Source: an uncultured Acidobacteriota bacterium (GTDB lineage: Bacteria; Acidobacteriota; Blastocatellia; Pyrinomonadales; Pyrinomonadaceae). From it: a stretch of DNA of 31,214 bases. Position 1 is the first letter of the stretch; each line of letters opens with the position of its first letter. Below, piece by piece: positions 409 to 7,669 of this stretch. The stretch spans positions 1 through 31,214 of the forward strand of contig CADEFG010000001.1 of NCBI GenBank assembly GCA_902826505.1, given 5' to 3'. The notes under the pieces are model-generated. The model did not search any database. It was not told the DNA's origin and saw nothing but the letters and a program-made list of their open reading frames with translations. A program made the position numbers and the translations under genes.

Positions 409-1170
409 ATGAGCCAAGTTTTAGAAAAACCATCCGTTCCGGTCAGCGAGGTTTCCATCGAATCGGTTTTGCTTGATGCCGACCTGTTTGTCAAATACCG
501 TTCGCCCGACAAAGCCTTTCAACTCTTGCACGAATCGATCGAACGCAGTCCGCGCTCGATTTCTCTGCGCGAAAAAATGCGCGACATCTGCATCACGCAA
601 AAAAATCTCGACGAAGCCGCGCGGCAATGTCTGGCGCTCGTTAATCTCTACATCGGACGCGAAGATTTTGACCTCGCTTACGATCGTTTGCAGGAAGCCA
701 AACTGCTTGACCCGCGAATTTCGGTCGCGCCCGGACTCGAAGCAATTCGCCGCGCACGGCGTCCCGAATTTGCTCAAACTCGCGATAAAACGCCGCAAAA
801 AGTGCGCACCGATGTGACGTTTGCCGGAAATCTCGCGTATGTTTCGATCTTCGATGCCGTGCAGGTCATCGAAAGCGCACGAATGACCGGCTTGCTCGTT
901 CTTAAATCCGATCTTCATCTGGCGAGCGTTTCGTTTAACGAAGGCAAGATCGTCGATGCCGAATGCAACGGACATAACGGTGTCACGGCTTTCCGGAAAA
1001 TCATCGATATCAACAGCGGCACTTTTGAATTTTCAACTTCCGAATTTGAATTTCCGATCGTCATCAGCATTTCGAGCAACACCAACTTTCTGCTCGACGT
1101 GCTCACCGAACTCGACAACGAACGCGCCGAAAAACAAGGCTTGCGAAACCTGCGCGACGAAGATTTTTAA
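409..1170 (+). CDS. DUF4388 (PATAN-like) domain protein with an N-terminal TPR-like helical region
   Basis: C-terminal half FAGNLAYVSIFDAVQVIESARMTGLLVL...VSFNEGKIVDAE...GVTAFRKII...SGTFEF...ISSNTNFLLDVL matches the DUF4388 pattern. N-terminal helical repeats (EAARQCLALVNLY...AYDRLQEAKLLDP) are TPR-like. Confidence 0.75.
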   Translation: MSQVLEKPSVPVSEVSIESVLLDADLFVKYRSPDKAFQLLHESIERSPRSISLREKMRDICITQKNLDEAARQCLALVNLYIGREDFDLAYDRLQEAKLLDPRISVAPGLEAIRRARRPEFAQTRDKTPQKVRTDVTFAGNLAYVSIFDAVQVIESARMTGLLVLKSDLHLASVSFNEGKIVDAECNGHNGVTAFRKIIDINSGTFEFSTSEFEFPIVISISSNTNFLLDVLTELDNERAEKQGLRNLRDEDF

Positions 1171-1297: not shown

Positions 1298-1330
1298 ATA
1301 GTGCAAACTTACGCCCCAAAGCACTATACA

Positions 1331-4300
1331 ATGTTCAAACTTCAACGTCTCGAAATTACAGGCTTCAAATCTTTCGCCGATTACACGGAAATCGTCTTTA
1401 CAGGCAACGGAATCACCGCCGTTGTTGGTCCAAATGGTTGCGGCAAATGCGTCAGCGGCGACACAATGATAACTTTGTCCAATGGCAAGGAAGTTGAAAT
1501 TCGTGAATTAGTCGAAAACGCATTAGAAGAATCATTTTTCAGAGAGCAATTTGATGACGGATTTTTAACGCGCGAAAATCCGCAAAACATCGAAATTCTC
1601 TCGCTTAATCCAAAAACATTAAAAATTGAACCGCGTAAAATTTCCGCTTTTATCAAACGCGAAACAACTCCGAAACTTCTTTTAATAAAAACGCTTTCGG
1701 GACGCGCAATCAAAGCCACGCCGTATCATCCTTTATTCACTCTGAAGAACGGAAAACTTCTGACACTTCGGAGCGATGAGGTAAAAAAAGGCGTAAAAAT
1801 TGCGGTTCCGCGAATCTTAAAAACTAGCGAGAAAAATATAAAATTCTCACTAAAAGATTGTTTTGATAATTTTTATGATAATGATAATGTTTTCCTTCCA
1901 TTTTCTGACAATCTCAAAGATTGGACTGAAAAAGGAAAAAATTATTTTGGAACCATTGAAAATTGGACTGAAAAAGCACAAGTTCCAAGAAGTGTCGTTG
2001 GAGGATTACGAAATAAACAATCCATAAATGTTGCCGAACTGCAAAAGCTTTCCCGTGTTTTTGAGAATCCATTTTTTGAAAATGAAATAAAATCAAAAGG
2101 AGCCGGCTTCTTGAAAATTCCGCAAAACTTTTCGCCCGATCTGGCTCGTTTTTTAGGCTTGTTAATTGCCGAAGGTCGTAATACTTACTCAAATCAAGTT
2201 TGGTTTGTTAATTCTGACGAAGCTGTTAATCAGGATTTTGAAAGGCTTGCCAGGAAAGTTTTTGATGTCAGCGTAGCTCAAAAACAATACAAAAAAGGAT
2301 CAACCGACAGTTTCATTTTTTCAAAATCGCTTTGTCAACTTTTGGACAAGTTCTTTAATTTTTCGATAAATTCTAACTCTTTTGAAAAAGAAATTCCGCC
2401 GCAGATTTTCGAGTCTGAGGCTGAAACGAAATGGTCGTTTCTTTCAGGACTATTTGAGGGCGATGCCTACGTTTGTTCGCGTCCGCAAAAAAGTAATGGA
2501 AAATTGCTAAACTATATCGAATATTCAACTGCAAGCAAGAAATTAGCCGAACAAACAATTTCTCTACTTTTACAATTAGGTATTTTTGCGTATCTTCGAC
2601 CAAAGCAAAAATATGCTTCAAATACGATTAAAAAAACCGTTCGCACATATTATTCGGTTTTAATTTACGGTTCAAAACAACTTGCAGAAACTGCTCGAAA
2701 GTTATCTTTTGTCGGGGAAAAACAAAAATCGTTGGAAAAACTCCGAAATATGGAGATTTCAACTAATCCGAATCGTGATTTAGTTCCAAGCGCAACCGAA
2801 CTCGTCCGTGAGGCTGTAAAATTAGCTCAAGTCAAAATAAAACCAAACCGTCAAAATTCCCCTAAAATCGCCGCTTATACGAGCAGAATATGTGAAGCAA
2901 GTCGAAGCGGTTTAAACGAAGTTATCGGACAAATCAAACAATTAAGCCCAAATATTCAACCGGCTGAAAATGTGTTGGAACAACTTTCGATTCTTGCAAA
3001 TTCAGATGTATTTTGGGATGAAATCGTCAACGTTGAGGAAATTGAACCAACTGAAAATTGGGTTTATGATTTGAGCATTGACGAAACTCATAATTTCGTC
3101 GCGGGAAATTTCATTGTTCACAACAGCAATGTTTCAGAAAGTATCGCGTGGGTTTTAGGCGAACAGCGCGCCAAACAACTGCGCGGCGCGGAAATGAAGG
3201 ACGTTGTCTTTCAGGGCACCAGCAAACGCAAACCGTCGGGCATGGCGGAAGTCGTTCTGCATCTCGTCCGTGACGAAGAATCAATATTCGTTGGCGATGA
3301 AGAAGATCTGAGCGACATTGACGAAGCCTTGAGCGATCTCGACGAAAACGCCGTCCAGGTCGAAGATTTTGAAACGGAAGACACAATTGGCGATCAGCAA
3401 TCAGCGGTCAGGGATCAGGAAAACGGTTTTCACACCGAAGAACTCGAAACGGCACAAGCGGCGCAAGTCGGTTCGGTTCAAATCGTCGAGAAAAAAGTCA
3501 GAACGAAACGCCATTGGAAACCAAGAAGTTTCGCGCTCGATTTTGCGCCGGGCGAAGCGATTTCCGTCACGCGAAGGCTTTATCTTTCGGGCGAAAGCGA
3601 ATATCAATTGAACGGCAAAACTTGTCGTCTGCGCGACATTCAGGATTTGTTCGCGGGCACGGGTTTGTCGGGAGCGCATTACGCGATCATCGAACAAGGT
3701 CGGATCGGTCAGATCTTATCGGCAAAACCATCGGACCGGCGCGGTTTGATCGAAGAAGCCGCCGGAATCAGCAAATTCCGCACGCGCCAACGCGCCGCCG
3801 AAGCGCGGCTTGAATCCGCCAAAAGCAATCTTTCGCGCATTTCCGATATTGTTTCCGAAATTGAAACACAGGCAAACTCGCTGCGCCGCCAAGCCGCGAA
3901 AACGCGGCGTTACAAATTATTGCGCGAAGAATTTCGTGTGCTCTTAAAAAATCTTTTCACTGCCGAAGGCGGATATTTGACCGATTTGGTCAATGAATTG
4001 GAAGAAAAGTTGACGGAAGCGGTCAAAACGGAACGCGCAATTTTTGCTCGCGTCGCCGAGAAGGACGAAGCTTTTCGCGAAGCGACCCAAAAAGCGCGCG
4101 AGTCGGAAGAAAATCTTTCGGAAATTCGTGCCCGGCACGCCGAAAATGTTCTTGAAAGAGACCGCAATGCGCGGGAAAAAACCTATCGTCAGGAACAAAT
4201 TGAAAATCTCAAAGTACGGCTCGGCATTTTGAAAGGCGAAACGCAAGCGACCGAACAGCGCCGGAAACTTTTCGATTCGGAAATCGAACGGCTCAAAAAG

Positions 4301-6850
4301 GACGAACGCAAAGAATTGGCAGAAGCCGAAAAAAATGTTCTGGAATTTCAGTCTGCCGAGAAAAAATACCAGTCGAAATTGGAAGAATTGCGCGAAATCG
4401 AAGTCGACCTCGAAACGATGCGCGGCGAAGTTCTGCAGCACACGGCGGCGGTCGAGCGATTTGCGGAAATCGGGCGACAGCTTGAAAACAACCTCGAAAG
4501 ATTAAAAGAGCGTGCCGAAGGTTTGCGCCGCGAACGAATCCGCGCCGAAGAAACGCATGCCGAACACGCCAAAGAAGCCGTCCGGCTCGAAAAAGATTTG
4601 CGCGAAAAACGCGAGAAACTCAAGGATTTACACAACGAAAAGCAAAATTTTCTGGTCGAATCGGGCGCCGCGCGCTCGCTTTTGCAAGCAGCGGAAAAAG
4701 CTTTACGCGAGTTGCAAAACCAATTTTCGCGCAAGCAAAACAGGCTCGAAACCTTGCAGGAGCTAGACGAAAAACGCGCTGTTTACGCGCCTTCGGTGCA
4801 GAAACTTTTCGCCGAACAATCGAAAATCGGCGTCAAGTTTTCGGGTACTTTAGCGGATCAATTTAACGTCGGGGAAAAAGTCGAAAAAGCGGTCGAAAAT
4901 CTTTTCGGCGCGTTTTTGCAGACGGTGCTGGTTGAATCGGAAACCGATGCGCAAAAGACGGTCGAATATTTGAAGAAATCGAATCTCGGGCGAATCGCGG
5001 TTTTGGTTTTTCCCGCAAAGTCGCAAAGTCGCAAAGTCGCAAAGTCAGAACCGCGAGCGGCAGCGACCGGGTTGAACAACACAACTGAATTTTCAAATCC
5101 AAAATCCAAAATCCAAGATCTGCTTGGTGTTTCGGATGATTTTGCGGAAGTTTTGGCAGAGGTTTTTCCGCGTGAAATGTCTTTGGAATTGGTTGAAAAT
5201 TTAAGCGATAAAATTGCCGAATCGAATGTAAACTTGATCGATTCGGAAGGCGATTTTATTTTTGGCGGAAAACTTTTTGTCAGCGGAAAAACGAACGCCA
5301 ACGAGAAAAACTCGTCGCTGCTGGCGTTCAAACGCGAACTGCGCGAGCTTGAAACGACAATCAAGGATTTAACGAAGGAAACCGAAAAAAGCGAAAAGGA
5401 AACCGAAAAAGCGCGTCGGAATTTAGCCGAAAAAGAAGGACAAATCGTTGATCTGCAATCTTTTATCGTGCAGGTCGAGCGCGATTTGCTGTCATTGGAA
5501 ATTCAGGAAAAATCGGCGCGGGCAGAAACCGAACGCGCCGAACGTCATAAAAAGGTCGTCGCCGAAGAAATTGCGCAGATCGATGCGGAACTCGGCGAAA
5601 TCCAGACAAAACAAAAAGAAGCGCGGATCAACGCCGAAAAAGCCGAAAAAGCGCGCGTCGGGACTTCTGAAAAATTGGCGGAAATTTCAAACAAATTAAA
5701 TGAAGTGCGGTCAAAAACCGAAGCTGAGAATACGATTTTGAACGAGAAACGGACGCTTGCGGCAACAAGCGAAGAACGCCGGCGGTCGGCGCAAAATGCT
5801 TTGCGGCGCGTTGAAAACGAGTTTAAAGAACTCGATTCGCGTCAGGCTCGGCAGAATCTGGAAATTCTCGAAACCGAAGGCAAACAAAAGGCGCTCGCCG
5901 CTTCAATCGCCGACATCGAAGAAAAAGTTGCGCTTGCCGCGAGCGATCAGGAAGCGGAACAAAACGAACTTATCGGCGCGACCGCGCATCTTAAAAATGC
6001 GCGTGAAACGGCAGATGCGATGAGTTCCGAACTGGCGGAACTCAACAAAAATTCGGCAGACGCTCGAAACGAACGTGCCGCGCTCGAAATCCGGCAGACC
6101 GAAGCGATCACAAAACTCCGAAGCGTCAACGAAAATTGTTCGCACGAATTGAATTTATCGCTGATCGAATTGGTTGAAAACGAGACGGTCGCGGAAGATT
6201 TCGATCTGGAAACGGCGCGGACGCGCGCGGACGATTTGCGTGAAAAGCTCGATAATTTCGGCGCGATAAATATGCTCGCGCTCGAAGAACTGGCGGACAC
6301 GGAGGAAAGACTTTTGTTTCTGACCTCGCAGCGTCAGGATATTATTGACAGTATCGCGGCGGCGGAAGAAGCCTTGCGCGAGATCAAAGAGCGGTCGCGG
6401 TCGCGGTTTAAGGAAGCATTCGAGGCGATCAACGCAAACTTTATCGAGTTTTTTCAAGAGCTTTTCGGCGGCGGTCGCGGCGAGATGACTTTGCTCGAAT
6501 CCGAAGATATTCTCGAAGCGGGAATCGAGGTCGTTGCCCAGCCGCCGGGCAAGCGTTTGCAGAATATTTTGCTTCTCTCGGGCGGCGAGAAAGCGATGAC
6601 GGCGATCGCGCTCGTGATGGCGATCTTTCGTTATCGCCCGTCGCCGTTTTGTCTGCTGGACGAAGTTGATGCGCCGCTCGACGATGCAAACGTCGGAAGA
6701 TTTGTTGATAAAATCGCGGAAATGGCTGAGAAAACTCAGTTTATCGTTATCACGCACAACAAGCGAACGATGGAAGCGGCGCGGGCGCTTTACGGCGTGA
6801 CGATGCAGGAAGCCGGAATTTCAAAAGTCGTTTCCGTCAGATTTGAGTGA
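1331..6850 (+). CDS. smc: Chromosome segregation protein SMC, intein-containing precursor (1839 aa; about 1280 aa after splicing)
   Basis: MFKLQRLEITGFKSF start (ATG at 1331). Walker A GPNGCGK|SN, LFAGTGL...IIEQG Q-loop region, long coiled coils, hinge (GTLADQF...GRIAVL...EGDFIFGG), signature LLSGGEK, Walker B/D-loop CLLDEVDAPLD, switch ITH, and end GVTMQEAGISKVVSV. Confidence 0.97.
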   Translation: MFKLQRLEITGFKSFADYTEIVFTGNGITAVVGPNGCGKCVSGDTMITLSNGKEVEIRELVENALEESFFREQFDDGFLTRENPQNIEILSLNPKTLKIEPRKISAFIKRETTPKLLLIKTLSGRAIKATPYHPLFTLKNGKLLTLRSDEVKKGVKIAVPRILKTSEKNIKFSLKDCFDNFYDNDNVFLPFSDNLKDWTEKGKNYFGTIENWTEKAQVPRSVVGGLRNKQSINVAELQKLSRVFENPFFENEIKSKGAGFLKIPQNFSPDLARFLGLLIAEGRNTYSNQVWFVNSDEAVNQDFERLARKVFDVSVAQKQYKKGSTDSFIFSKSLCQLLDKFFNFSINSNSFEKEIPPQIFESEAETKWSFLSGLFEGDAYVCSRPQKSNGKLLNYIEYSTASKKLAEQTISLLLQLGIFAYLRPKQKYASNTIKKTVRTYYSVLIYGSKQLAETARKLSFVGEKQKSLEKLRNMEISTNPNRDLVPSATELVREAVKLAQVKIKPNRQNSPKIAAYTSRICEASRSGLNEVIGQIKQLSPNIQPAENVLEQLSILANSDVFWDEIVNVEEIEPTENWVYDLSIDETHNFVAGNFIVHNSNVSESIAWVLGEQRAKQLRGAEMKDVVFQGTSKRKPSGMAEVVLHLVRDEESIFVGDEEDLSDIDEALSDLDENAVQVEDFETEDTIGDQQSAVRDQENGFHTEELETAQAAQVGSVQIVEKKVRTKRHWKPRSFALDFAPGEAISVTRRLYLSGESEYQLNGKTCRLRDIQDLFAGTGLSGAHYAIIEQGRIGQILSAKPSDRRGLIEEAAGISKFRTRQRAAEARLESAKSNLSRISDIVSEIETQANSLRRQAAKTRRYKLLREEFRVLLKNLFTAEGGYLTDLVNELEEKLTEAVKTERAIFARVAEKDEAFREATQKARESEENLSEIRARHAENVLERDRNAREKTYRQEQIENLKVRLGILKGETQATEQRRKLFDSEIERLKKDERKELAEAEKNVLEFQSAEKKYQSKLEELREIEVDLETMRGEVLQHTAAVERFAEIGRQLENNLERLKERAEGLRRERIRAEETHAEHAKEAVRLEKDLREKREKLKDLHNEKQNFLVESGAARSLLQAAEKALRELQNQFSRKQNRLETLQELDEKRAVYAPSVQKLFAEQSKIGVKFSGTLADQFNVGEKVEKAVENLFGAFLQTVLVESETDAQKTVEYLKKSNLGRIAVLVFPAKSQSRKVAKSEPRAAATGLNNTTEFSNPKSKIQDLLGVSDDFAEVLAEVFPREMSLELVENLSDKIAESNVNLIDSEGDFIFGGKLFVSGKTNANEKNSSLLAFKRELRELETTIKDLTKETEKSEKETEKARRNLAEKEGQIVDLQSFIVQVERDLLSLEIQEKSARAETERAERHKKVVAEEIAQIDAELGEIQTKQKEARINAEKAEKARVGTSEKLAEISNKLNEVRSKTEAENTILNEKRTLAATSEERRRSAQNALRRVENEFKELDSRQARQNLEILETEGKQKALAASIADIEEKVALAASDQEAEQNELIGATAHLKNARETADAMSSELAELNKNSADARNERAALEIRQTEAITKLRSVNENCSHELNLSLIELVENETVAEDFDLETARTRADDLREKLDNFGAINMLALEELADTEERLLFLTSQRQDIIDSIAAAEEALREIKERSRSRFKEAFEAINANFIEFFQELFGGGRGEMTLLESEDILEAGIEVVAQPPGKRLQNILLLSGGEKAMTAIALVMAIFRYRPSPFCLLDEVDAPLDDANVGRFVDKIAEMAEKTQFIVITHNKRTMEAARALYGVTMQEAGISKVVSVRFE
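1448..3124 (+). mobile_element. Intein (559 aa) with LAGLIDADG homing endonuclease, inserted in the SMC Walker A
   Basis: Block A CVSGDTMITLSNG, block B IKATPYHPLFT (TxxH), LAGLIDADG motifs LARFLGLLIAEG and FLSGLFEGDA, block H YSTASKKLAEQTISLLLQLGI, block F VYDLSIDETHNFVAG, block G IVHN followed by Ser +1. Excision restores GPNGCGKSNV. Confidence 0.97.
3393..3420 (+). repeat. Four degenerate heptamers (RTCAGSR) inside the smc coding sequence
   Basis: ATCAGCA-ATCAGCG-GTCAGGG-ATCAGGA, within DQQSAVRDQE of the acidic head insertion. Confidence 0.6.
5011..5115 (+). repeat. In-frame repeat cassette in the SMC hinge: (CGCAAAGT)4, a GC-rich REP-like motif, and (AAATCCA)3
   Basis: 5014-5045 has 4 perfect octamers. 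5047-5071 is AGAACCGCGAGCGGCAGCGACCGGG. 5095-5115 has 3 perfect heptamers. Translates as PAKSQSRKVAKSEPRAAATGLNNTTEFSNPKSKIQ. Confidence 0.85.
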
Positions 6851-6853
6851 TTT

Positions 6854-7669
6854 ATGAAGAAATTTATATTTGCAATTTTAATCGCGGTAACAATTTCAGG
6901 ACTAGCGGTTTCGTTTTTTGCCCAGACGAAAAAGCCCGTCAAAAAGAATATCAAACCGACGCCGACACCGACCCCGCAAGTTTCGCCGTCGCAAAATGCG
7001 GAAGCCGAGCCGGTTAAAACGCCGACCAAAAAAAACGAGCGTCCGGTAAACGGAAATTCTTCAAATAATGCGCTTGCGACAAAAGATGCACCGAATTATT
7101 TTTACGAATTTTCGCAGCCCGCCTTTACGGTTTCAAAAGTTCTGATCGAGCATGACGAAAGCGGCAAAGGCAAAATTTCGTTTATGAAAAGTATTTCCGA
7201 CGAGGTAATTTCTGACCCGATCGAGGTTTCGCCCGCCGCGCTTGGAAGAATCAACGCCGCACTGACCGCGCTGAATTTTTTTGATTCGACGGAAAATTAC
7301 CAATACGAAAAAGATTATTCGCATCTCGGCAATATCACGATAAAAATAAAAAAGAACGGACGGATGCGGGAAACAAAATTTAACTGGACGCAAAATCAGG
7401 ACGCAAAAACATTGGCGGACGAATATCGCAAAATCAGCAATCAGTATATTTGGATTTTCGATATCAATCTGGCGCGGGTCAATCAACCGCTCGAATCACC
7501 AAAATTAATGGATATGATTGATTCATATATCAGGCGAAATGAGGTTTCCGATGCCACTCAGCTGATTCCTTTTTTGAAGGAATTAGGCAATGACGAACGC
7601 ATTCCGCTGATTGCGCGCAATCACGCGACCAGATTAATAGAAAAGATCGGGAAGGAAGAGAAAAAATAA
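6854..7669 (+). CDS. Exported hypothetical protein with a Pro/Thr linker
   Basis: Signal peptide MKKFIFAILIAVTISGLAVSFFA, PTPTPTP linker, host-like codon use, starts 3 nt after the smc stop (likely co-transcribed). Confidence 0.8.
   Translation: MKKFIFAILIAVTISGLAVSFFAQTKKPVKKNIKPTPTPTPQVSPSQNAEAEPVKTPTKKNERPVNGNSSNNALATKDAPNYFYEFSQPAFTVSKVLIEHDESGKGKISFMKSISDEVISDPIEVSPAALGRINAALTALNFFDSTENYQYEKDYSHLGNITIKIKKNGRMRETKFNWTQNQDAKTLADEYRKISNQYIWIFDINLARVNQPLESPKLMDMIDSYIRRNEVSDATQLIPFLKELGNDERIPLIARNHATRLIEKIGKEEKK

Follow-up and report, generated by a model that had tools for sequence, protein, structure and literature searches.

The smc gene of an uncultured wastewater bacterium of the Acidobacteriota (family Pyrinomonadaceae) is interrupted, between the codons for the Walker A lysine and serine, by a coding insert of 559 amino acids (aa). 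The insert lies in a stretch of 31,214 nucleotides (nt), positions 1 to 31,214 of the forward strand of contig CADEFG010000001.1 (assembly GCA_902826505.1), and this whole stretch is called the window here. The element is very probably a class-1 intein that is able to splice and has a LAGLIDADG homing endonuclease nested in it; it belongs to a widespread intein allele at the Walker A position GK/S(N) of SMC (structural maintenance of chromosomes). Our best reading is that it is a selfish homing intein and that the only SMC found in the genome cannot do without its splicing. We infer that the intein splices, that it does so constitutively (unregulated) and that its endonuclease is active.

Results

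Insertion in the host protein

A single long open reading frame (ORF) crosses the region (1301-6850, plus strand; ORF list and translation), and its translation places Cys1 of the insert at 1448-1450 and Asn559 at 3122-3124. The junctions read AVVGPNGCGK, then CVSGDT...NFIVHN, then Ser+1, and the insertion is in frame between the Walker A Lys and Ser. SMCs with an empty site, one from the host genus (G171) and two from the host family (G077, G034), run through the Walker A motif without an insert, and across 25 residues (Gly43 to Lys) the G171 protein is the ligation product predicted for the window. Because these intein-free orthologues read through the conserved motif, the insert represents a precise in-frame insertion. 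The insert matched Pfam Intein_splicing (E 3e-28) and LAGLIDADG_3 (PF14528, E 2e-14 to 2e-15), and the NCBIfam models intein_Nterm (TIGR01445, aa 1-98) and intein_Cterm (TIGR01443) both scored above their cut-offs. The guanine-cytosine (GC) content was 0.365 in the intein and 0.51 in the exteins. An earlier sequence-only reading of this DNA had placed a complete 559-aa intein at 1448-3124, between the P-loop Lys and Ser of SMC; translation, family matches and the empty allele of G171 show that this placement was exact.

Homologues begin with MFKLQRLEI, which sets the start of smc at ATG 1331; translation probably does not begin at the in-frame GTG farther upstream (1301). Counted from this ATG, the precursor has 1839 aa and the spliced SMC 1280 aa, which reproduces the two lengths of the sequence-only reading (1839 and about 1280 aa). 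Judged from its domains, the host protein is a genuine SMC. It scored 840 bits with TIGR02168 SMC_prok_B (NCBIfam; cut-off 567) and matched Pfam SMC_N and SMC_hinge, with the head, coiled coil and hinge of a full-length SMC equivalog. Once the intein is removed the Walker A motif is whole (GPNGCGKSN), and Walker B, the ABC signature and the H-loop are also present. The genes scpA and scpB adjoin each other on contig C649 (PF02616, E 6e-32; PF04079, E 5e-56).

The source genome is a metagenome-assembled genome (MAG) of 1030 contigs and 83% completeness, in which no second full-length SMC was found, so that a single true SMC is known from it. Candidates for an intein-free SMC paralogue were rejected: the remaining SMC_N matches were either weak and of ABC type or open frames that encode 574, 443 and 900 aa, none of them a full-length SMC. 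In the Walker A motif the Ser that follows the Lys coordinates Mg. With 559 residues between the Lys and this Ser, nucleotide binding would be blocked, and SMC activity would therefore depend on splicing, as is expected from established P-loop chemistry. The proposal that Walker A is not intact before splicing, and that SMC depends on it, is thus upheld by the separation of the two residues and by the lack of another true SMC among the proteins found.

The SMC head also contains an acidic insert of 88 aa (28% Asp and Glu) at 3266-3529, between the first head strands and the remainder of SMC_N. Since the intein-free SMC of G171 carries it too, this acidic insert is a feature of the lineage and unrelated to the intein.

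Splicing and endonuclease domains

The residues of the splicing centre were compared in an alignment of 30 relatives with 43-86% identity (alignment A1). Cys1, Thr91, His94, Asp541, His548, His558, Asn559 and Ser+1 were invariant, Cys1 in 30/30 relatives. The Block F and G stretch reads VYD541LSIDETH548NF ... VH558N559, followed by Ser+1. The window intein contains no stop or frameshift, and Cys1, Thr91, His94, Asp541, His558, Asn559 and Ser+1 are intact, as are Glu242 and Asp339 of the endonuclease. The N-terminal splicing subdomain is kept in the mini-inteins of two relatives (G211 and G543, described below).

The AlphaFold2 model of the intein with short flanks had a predicted local distance difference test (pLDDT) value of 89.8 and a predicted template-modelling (pTM) score of 0.90. 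It consists of a split Hint fold (aa 7-121 and 521-558), a helical part (aa 135-204), the endonuclease core (aa 213-418) and a second helical part (aa 426-517). The leading Foldseek matches in the PDB were bifunctional inteins, namely TliVMA (7qss), PI-PkoII (2cw7) and PI-PfuI (1dq3), followed by PI-SceI. The endonuclease core, an alpha-beta-beta-alpha-beta-beta-alpha unit nested in Hint, also matched I-Tsp061I and I-OnuI. The root-mean-square deviation (rmsd) of the Hint fold was 1.5-2.8 Å against the PhoCDC21-1, TFIIB, RadA and DnaB mini-inteins; on PhoCDC21-1 (6rpq) it was 1.5 Å at 39% identity.

Both LAGLIDADG motifs are conserved in the full-length family members (n=19), with one genome of the host genus excepted. 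In that genome (G615, contig C159; intein 86% identical) Gln replaces the catalytic Glu at aa 242 of motif 1, and its endonuclease is probably inactive though the remaining sequence is intact. The helical middle region corresponds to a gap at alignment columns 151-221 in the relative P0049, and the intein of G050 has 484 aa. Because it is deleted in the 484- and 485-aa variants, this region is dispensable.

Relatives at the same site

A protein search with the first 700 residues as query listed 120 matches, all of them SMC proteins with Intein_splicing and LAGLIDADG domains. The insertion position, GK/C...HN/SN, was the same in all 118 listed matches with both junctions readable. Database source names assign the matches to Omnitrophica, Acidobacteria (Pyrinomonadaceae, Blastocatellia) and Chloroflexi (Ktedonobacterales, Chloroflexaceae). 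When 1.84 billion cluster representatives at 50% identity were searched exhaustively with HMMER, 224 relatives had E <= 1e-30. Among the best 150 of these, 57 have an intein whose start lies in the first 120 residues and immediately follows a P-loop GK; MCM is the host in two of the 57, and the others show the SMC N-terminal pattern GFKSF...GxNGxGK. Named distant relatives include the DPANN archaea Diapherotrites, Micrarchaeota, Nanoarchaeota and Woesearchaeota. Identity to the window intein was 42-88% in Acidobacteriota, Chloroflexota and Omnitrophota and 30-40% in the DPANN lineages.

The insertion site in the SMC P-loop, as judged from these sequences, is not new, and the allele is widespread. 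The sequence-only reading had taken SMC for an unusual, perhaps new, intein host. This view has to be given up, since the site is occupied in 118/118 readable listed relatives and, among the best 150 clusters, in about 57, DPANN included. According to Novikova et al. 2016 (PMC4760082), moreover, the archaeal structural-maintenance-of-chromosomes ATPase contains inteins. The sequence-only reading had named many catalogued inteins at this SMC site as the evidence that would refute novelty, and by this standard novelty of the site is refuted. SMC is not among 14 rows, DnaB to DnaG, of the top-15 bacterial host table of the same article. No paper on SMC inteins of bacteria turned up in a literature search for 'SMC intein' and similar terms; abundant as they are in the databases, they are essentially absent from the literature.

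The closest non-SMC relatives include MCM P-loop inteins (P0171, P0223), which follow GDPGTGK, the archaeal MCM Walker A motif. This hints at a common ancestry of the SMC and MCM P-loop inteins, with jumps between P-loops possible. A profile scan of the genome contigs with the intein alignment returned only six unrelated inteins, the scan being swamped by the generic P-loop pattern.

Distribution and selection in the host lineage

The intein was present in 3/401 genomes of an even sample of the host phylum, in 23/401 genomes of the host family (counted as matches of more than 170 bits within SMC-sized frames) and in 7/18 genomes of the host genus. A well-supported sub-clade of the genus holds three alleles: the fast-evolving, full-length intein of G492, the 259-aa mini-intein of G211, from which the endonuclease is gone, and the empty site of G171. 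In a separate genus, a 178-aa mini-intein (G543) occurs beside full-length inteins. Full, mini and empty alleles form the series that would be expected from a homing cycle of invasion, endonuclease decay and loss. The GC content of the intein was lower than that of the exteins in 22/23 genomes.

Trees of intein and extein were built from 25 family members. Pairwise identities of the two parts were correlated (Spearman 0.81), and the trees share their main groups. Four post-hoc approximately unbiased (AU) tests gave p values of 0.015, 0.135, 0.377 and 0.044. In neither conflict do both data sets reject the grouping of the other, and horizontal transfer inside the family is not claimed. By these measures the intein does not appear to have moved often over long distances among family members.

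The intein is under strong and even purifying selection in all subdomains, with a ratio of nonsynonymous to synonymous substitution rates (dN/dS) of about 0.1. The ratio was 0.08-0.12 for the whole intein at dS 0.6-1.2, 0.06-0.09 for aa 230-470 (a segment spanning most of the endonuclease core), 0.09-0.15 for the splicing subdomains, 0.04-0.28 for the helical middle region (aa 136-212) and 0.08-0.18 for the helical region after the core. For the extein head it was 0.02-0.05. Distribution, phylogeny, selection and composition together indicate that the endonuclease still does something visible to selection. The simplest reading of the sequences would be ongoing homing among close relatives with intein-polymorphic populations.

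Discussion

The mechanism we propose is based on the conserved residues and on the established class-1 pathway. The Hint domain would fold within the 1839-aa precursor, and Cys1 would attack the Lys(-1) carbonyl in an N-S acyl shift assisted by Thr91 and His94. The N-extein would then pass to Ser+1 by trans-esterification, and the intein would be released by cyclisation of Asn559 with the assistance of His558. An O-N shift would form the Lys-Ser peptide bond, restoring GPNGCGKSN in a 1280-aa SMC that presumably acts with ScpA and ScpB. In smc alleles that lack the intein, the freed protein is predicted to cleave the conserved P-loop coding sequence, and recombinational repair would then copy the intein into the cut allele. 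Such cutting and copying into empty alleles would explain both the patchy persistence among close relatives and an endonuclease kept under selection.

Several points weigh against this interpretation. Splicing and DNA cleavage are deduced here from a sequence and a model, and a second SMC is possible in a genome that is 83% complete. The intein tree mirrors the host tree and the AU tests give no firm incongruence, so horizontal homing is conjectural; the pattern could also reflect ancient vertical inheritance with many losses. In addition, long-term purifying selection on the endonuclease of a mostly vertical element would also be predicted if the intein had a domesticated or regulatory role.

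Such a role might be that of a post-translational switch of SMC, in which a disulfide between Cys-3 and Cys1 (CGKC) blocks the first splicing step under oxidised conditions and condensin is held back until reduction. The window precursor contains this pair (C-G-K-C1), as do 84/119 close intein-bearing relatives. The intein of Pyrococcus abyssi MoaA is controlled by a native Cys-3/Cys1 disulfide, and an engineered version traps Ssp DnaE (PMC3922620, PMC10663303). Conditional splicing is described in passages of the literature for other P-loop inteins, those of RadA and DnaB, and the strong, long-lasting constraint on the whole intein is compatible with a role at the level of the host. However, Cys-3 is a trait of the host lineage, shared by the intein-free G171, G077 and G034. 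At this position Ser occurs in 32/119 close intein-bearing SMCs (Ser or Ala in 35/119), and Ser, Ala or Asn in 36/55 distant ones. Ser outnumbers Cys by 33 to 19 among the intein-bearing 50%-identity cluster representatives (n=55). Moreover, 378/401 family genomes do without the intein, which argues against an important regulatory role. We therefore consider the switch unlikely.

Because intein-free relatives carry Cys and intein-bearing SMCs often have Ser, Cys-3 is explained as a by-product of the host protein, with no visible selection for a partner role, and its interpretation as a co-adapted redox partner was rejected as a demonstrated feature. Two reviews (PMC3922620, PMC10663303) attribute the Cys-3/Cys1 redox traps of the MoaA and Ssp DnaE inteins to Callahan et al. 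2011. Both the native MoaA trap and the engineered Ssp DnaE trap place a Cys three residues before Cys1 (CxxC), as C-G-K-C does here. In contrast to the MoaA trap, Cys-3 of the window belongs to the host Walker A motif irrespective of the intein, and a disulfide would be hypothetical. Gating of chromosome segregation by conditional splicing, the further step of the sequence-only reading, finds no support beyond analogy. By the same analogy, in lineages with GPNGCGK, Cys1 might complete a natural CGKC redox trap, so that SMC maturation would pause under oxidative stress and resume on reduction, and the durable selection would reflect host-level use and not only homing. We regard this extension as quite improbable. 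If it were true, chromosome compaction and segregation would pause together with SMC maturation under oxidative stress.

It is also conceivable that the element is decaying or dead, with splicing or the endonuclease lost, leaving either a disabled smc relic or an intein that the host simply tolerates. Decay is seen among its relatives, in mini-inteins of 178, 259 and 403 aa, in shorter variants of 484 and 485 aa and in the Gln that stands for the catalytic Glu in motif 1 of G615. Against this, every catalytic residue of the window intein is intact in an uninterrupted frame, dN/dS is about 0.1 in the intein and 0.02-0.05 in the exteins, and the intein-bearing SMC is the only SMC found in the genome. 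A dead element is thus very unlikely.

The chance that an intein-bearing fragment was chimerically joined into smc during assembly is practically negligible: the source MAG is fragmented and the GC content of the insert is distinctly below that of its flanks, but the insert keeps the reading frame to the codon, both junctions are bridged by separately assembled contigs of other samples and the same insertion occurs in single-contig genomes of related species (G565 and G558). From 82 to 99% of the sampled words of the stretch were present in four wastewater runs. In two other samples of the same study, Logan contigs extend across the N junction (X2, 1200-1873, 0 differences; X3, 1213-2282, 4 differences) and the C junction (X2, 1859-3400, 3 differences; X3, 2315-3400, 7 differences), and a contig from a separate study (X7) also crosses the C junction. 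A chimera, for which the sequence-only reading had proposed a check at the junctions, is rejected on these grounds. No contig skipping 1448-3124, as expected of an intein-free allele in the same population, was found in the four runs; since contigs lose rare variants, this does not imply that such an allele is absent.

The intein of the window shows no essential difference from the SMC P-loop inteins recorded in databases for other bacteria and archaea. These occupy the same host in the arrangement GxxGxGK/C...HN/S or T-N, use Cys1/Ser+1 chemistry, have about 555-565 aa and contain a LAGLIDADG core. The nearest solved relatives by sequence (E 4e-28) are the Pyrococcus MCM inteins PhoCDC21-1, the best match, and PabCDC21-1 (6rpq, 6rpp; PMC6801210), whose Hint parts superpose with rmsd 1.5-1.8 Å at 34-39% identity. 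They too interrupt the Walker A loop in an ATPase that handles chromosomes, but this host is an AAA+ helicase, in contrast to the ABC-type SMC, and the solved forms are mini-inteins without an endonuclease. TliVMA (7qss), PI-PkoII (2cw7), PI-PfuI (1dq3) and PI-SceI (1vde) share with the window model the Hint fold, the nested two-motif LAGLIDADG part and extra helical DNA-binding parts. Their Foldseek E values were 5e-28 to 5e-11, and target-normalised TM-scores were 0.64-0.78 for TliVMA, PI-PkoII and PI-PfuI. These bifunctional inteins are only 12-22% identical to the window intein and reside in V-ATPase, DNA polymerase and ribonucleotide reductase (RNR), and the helical region of about 75 aa (136-212) in the window intein is missing in some of its own relatives.

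Taken alone, the finding carries little weight, as it adds another copy of a common, automatically annotated mobile element. It does have three modest uses. Published surveys, in the parts considered above, mention SMC as an intein host only for archaea. The finding shows bacterial SMC to be a regular intein host, so that condensin joins the P-loop ATPases of the replisome-centred network favoured by inteins. The full, mini and empty alleles within the host genus provide a clean natural series for the intein homing cycle, and the CGKC junction is a cheap and direct test case for intein-based redox control of condensin.

Other features of the window and the genome

Table 1. Coordinates of the smc gene, its intein and their functional parts in the window.
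Feature	Position	Strand	Basis or remark
smc, 1839-aa SMC precursor	1331..6850, stop codon included	+	ORF, translation, TIGR02168
N-extein, 39 aa	1331..1447	+	Terminates in the first Walker A part, GPNGCGK (1427-1447)
Cys-3 of the N-extein	1439-1441	+	Within GPNGCGK
Whole intein, 559 aa, Cys1 to His558-Asn559	1448..3124	+	Pfam/NCBIfam, exact gap against G171 allele, AlphaFold2
N-terminal splicing (Hint) subdomain, aa 1-135	1448..1852	+	TIGR01445, modelled beta-strands
Block A, Cys1	1448-1450	+	N-terminal nucleophile
Block B, T91-P-Y-H94 (TxxH)	1718-1729	+	Thr and His invariant in alignment A1
Helical middle region, aa 136-212	1853..2083	+	AlphaFold2 helices, model residues 147-216
LAGLIDADG homing endonuclease core, aa 213-418	2084..2701	+	PF14528, conserved motifs, Foldseek
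LAGLIDADG motif 1, LARFLGLLIAEG	Catalytic Glu242, 2171-2173	+	LLIAE242G
LAGLIDADG motif 2, LSGLFEGDA	Catalytic Asp339, 2462-2464	+	LFEGD339A
Post-endonuclease helical region, aa 419-520	2702..3007	+	Model helices 438-529; conserved
C-terminal splicing subdomain, aa 521-559	3008..3124	+	TIGR01443; invariant A1 columns; kept in mini-inteins
Block F, VYDLSIDETHNF	Asp541, 3068-3070; His548, 3089-3091	+	Alignment A1
Block G, His558-Asn559	3119-3124	+	Alignment A1
C-extein, 1241 aa and stop codon	3125..6850	+	SMC_N and SMC_hinge matches
Ser+1	3125-3127	+	Splice nucleophile and Walker A Ser
Signature motif, LSGGEK	6575-6592	+	C-terminal head, intact
Walker B, LLDEVDA	6653-6673	+	C-terminal head, intact
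H-loop, VITHN	6746-6760	+	C-terminal head, intact

The neighbours of smc are an upstream 253-aa ORF (409-1170, plus strand), in which a DUF4388 domain is the only feature, and a 271-aa ORF (6854-7669, plus strand) 4 nt past the smc stop, for which neither Pfam nor NCBIfam gave a family match. The stop of the upstream gene is followed at once by a large inverted repeat. Its arms, at 1169-1212 and 1222-1265, are 44 nt long and 91% complementary, enclose a loop of 9 nt and consist of reiterated AAAAGGGAAAAAG units. From an unrelated wastewater study, a 12-kb contig matched only 1228-1261, and this is a point where two assemblers folded back. Possible identities of the inverted repeat are a strong terminator and a repeated palindromic element.

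At least four further LAGLIDADG inteins are present in the source genome (G000): DnaB contains two, at different sites, and SufB and DnaG (primase) contain one each. They lie on contigs C58 (L004), C917 (L002), C214 (L007) and C25 (L008). The DnaB intein of C58 is split over two overlapping frames (L004, 802-2064 and 1985-3283), which suggests a frameshift within the intein or a sequencing error.

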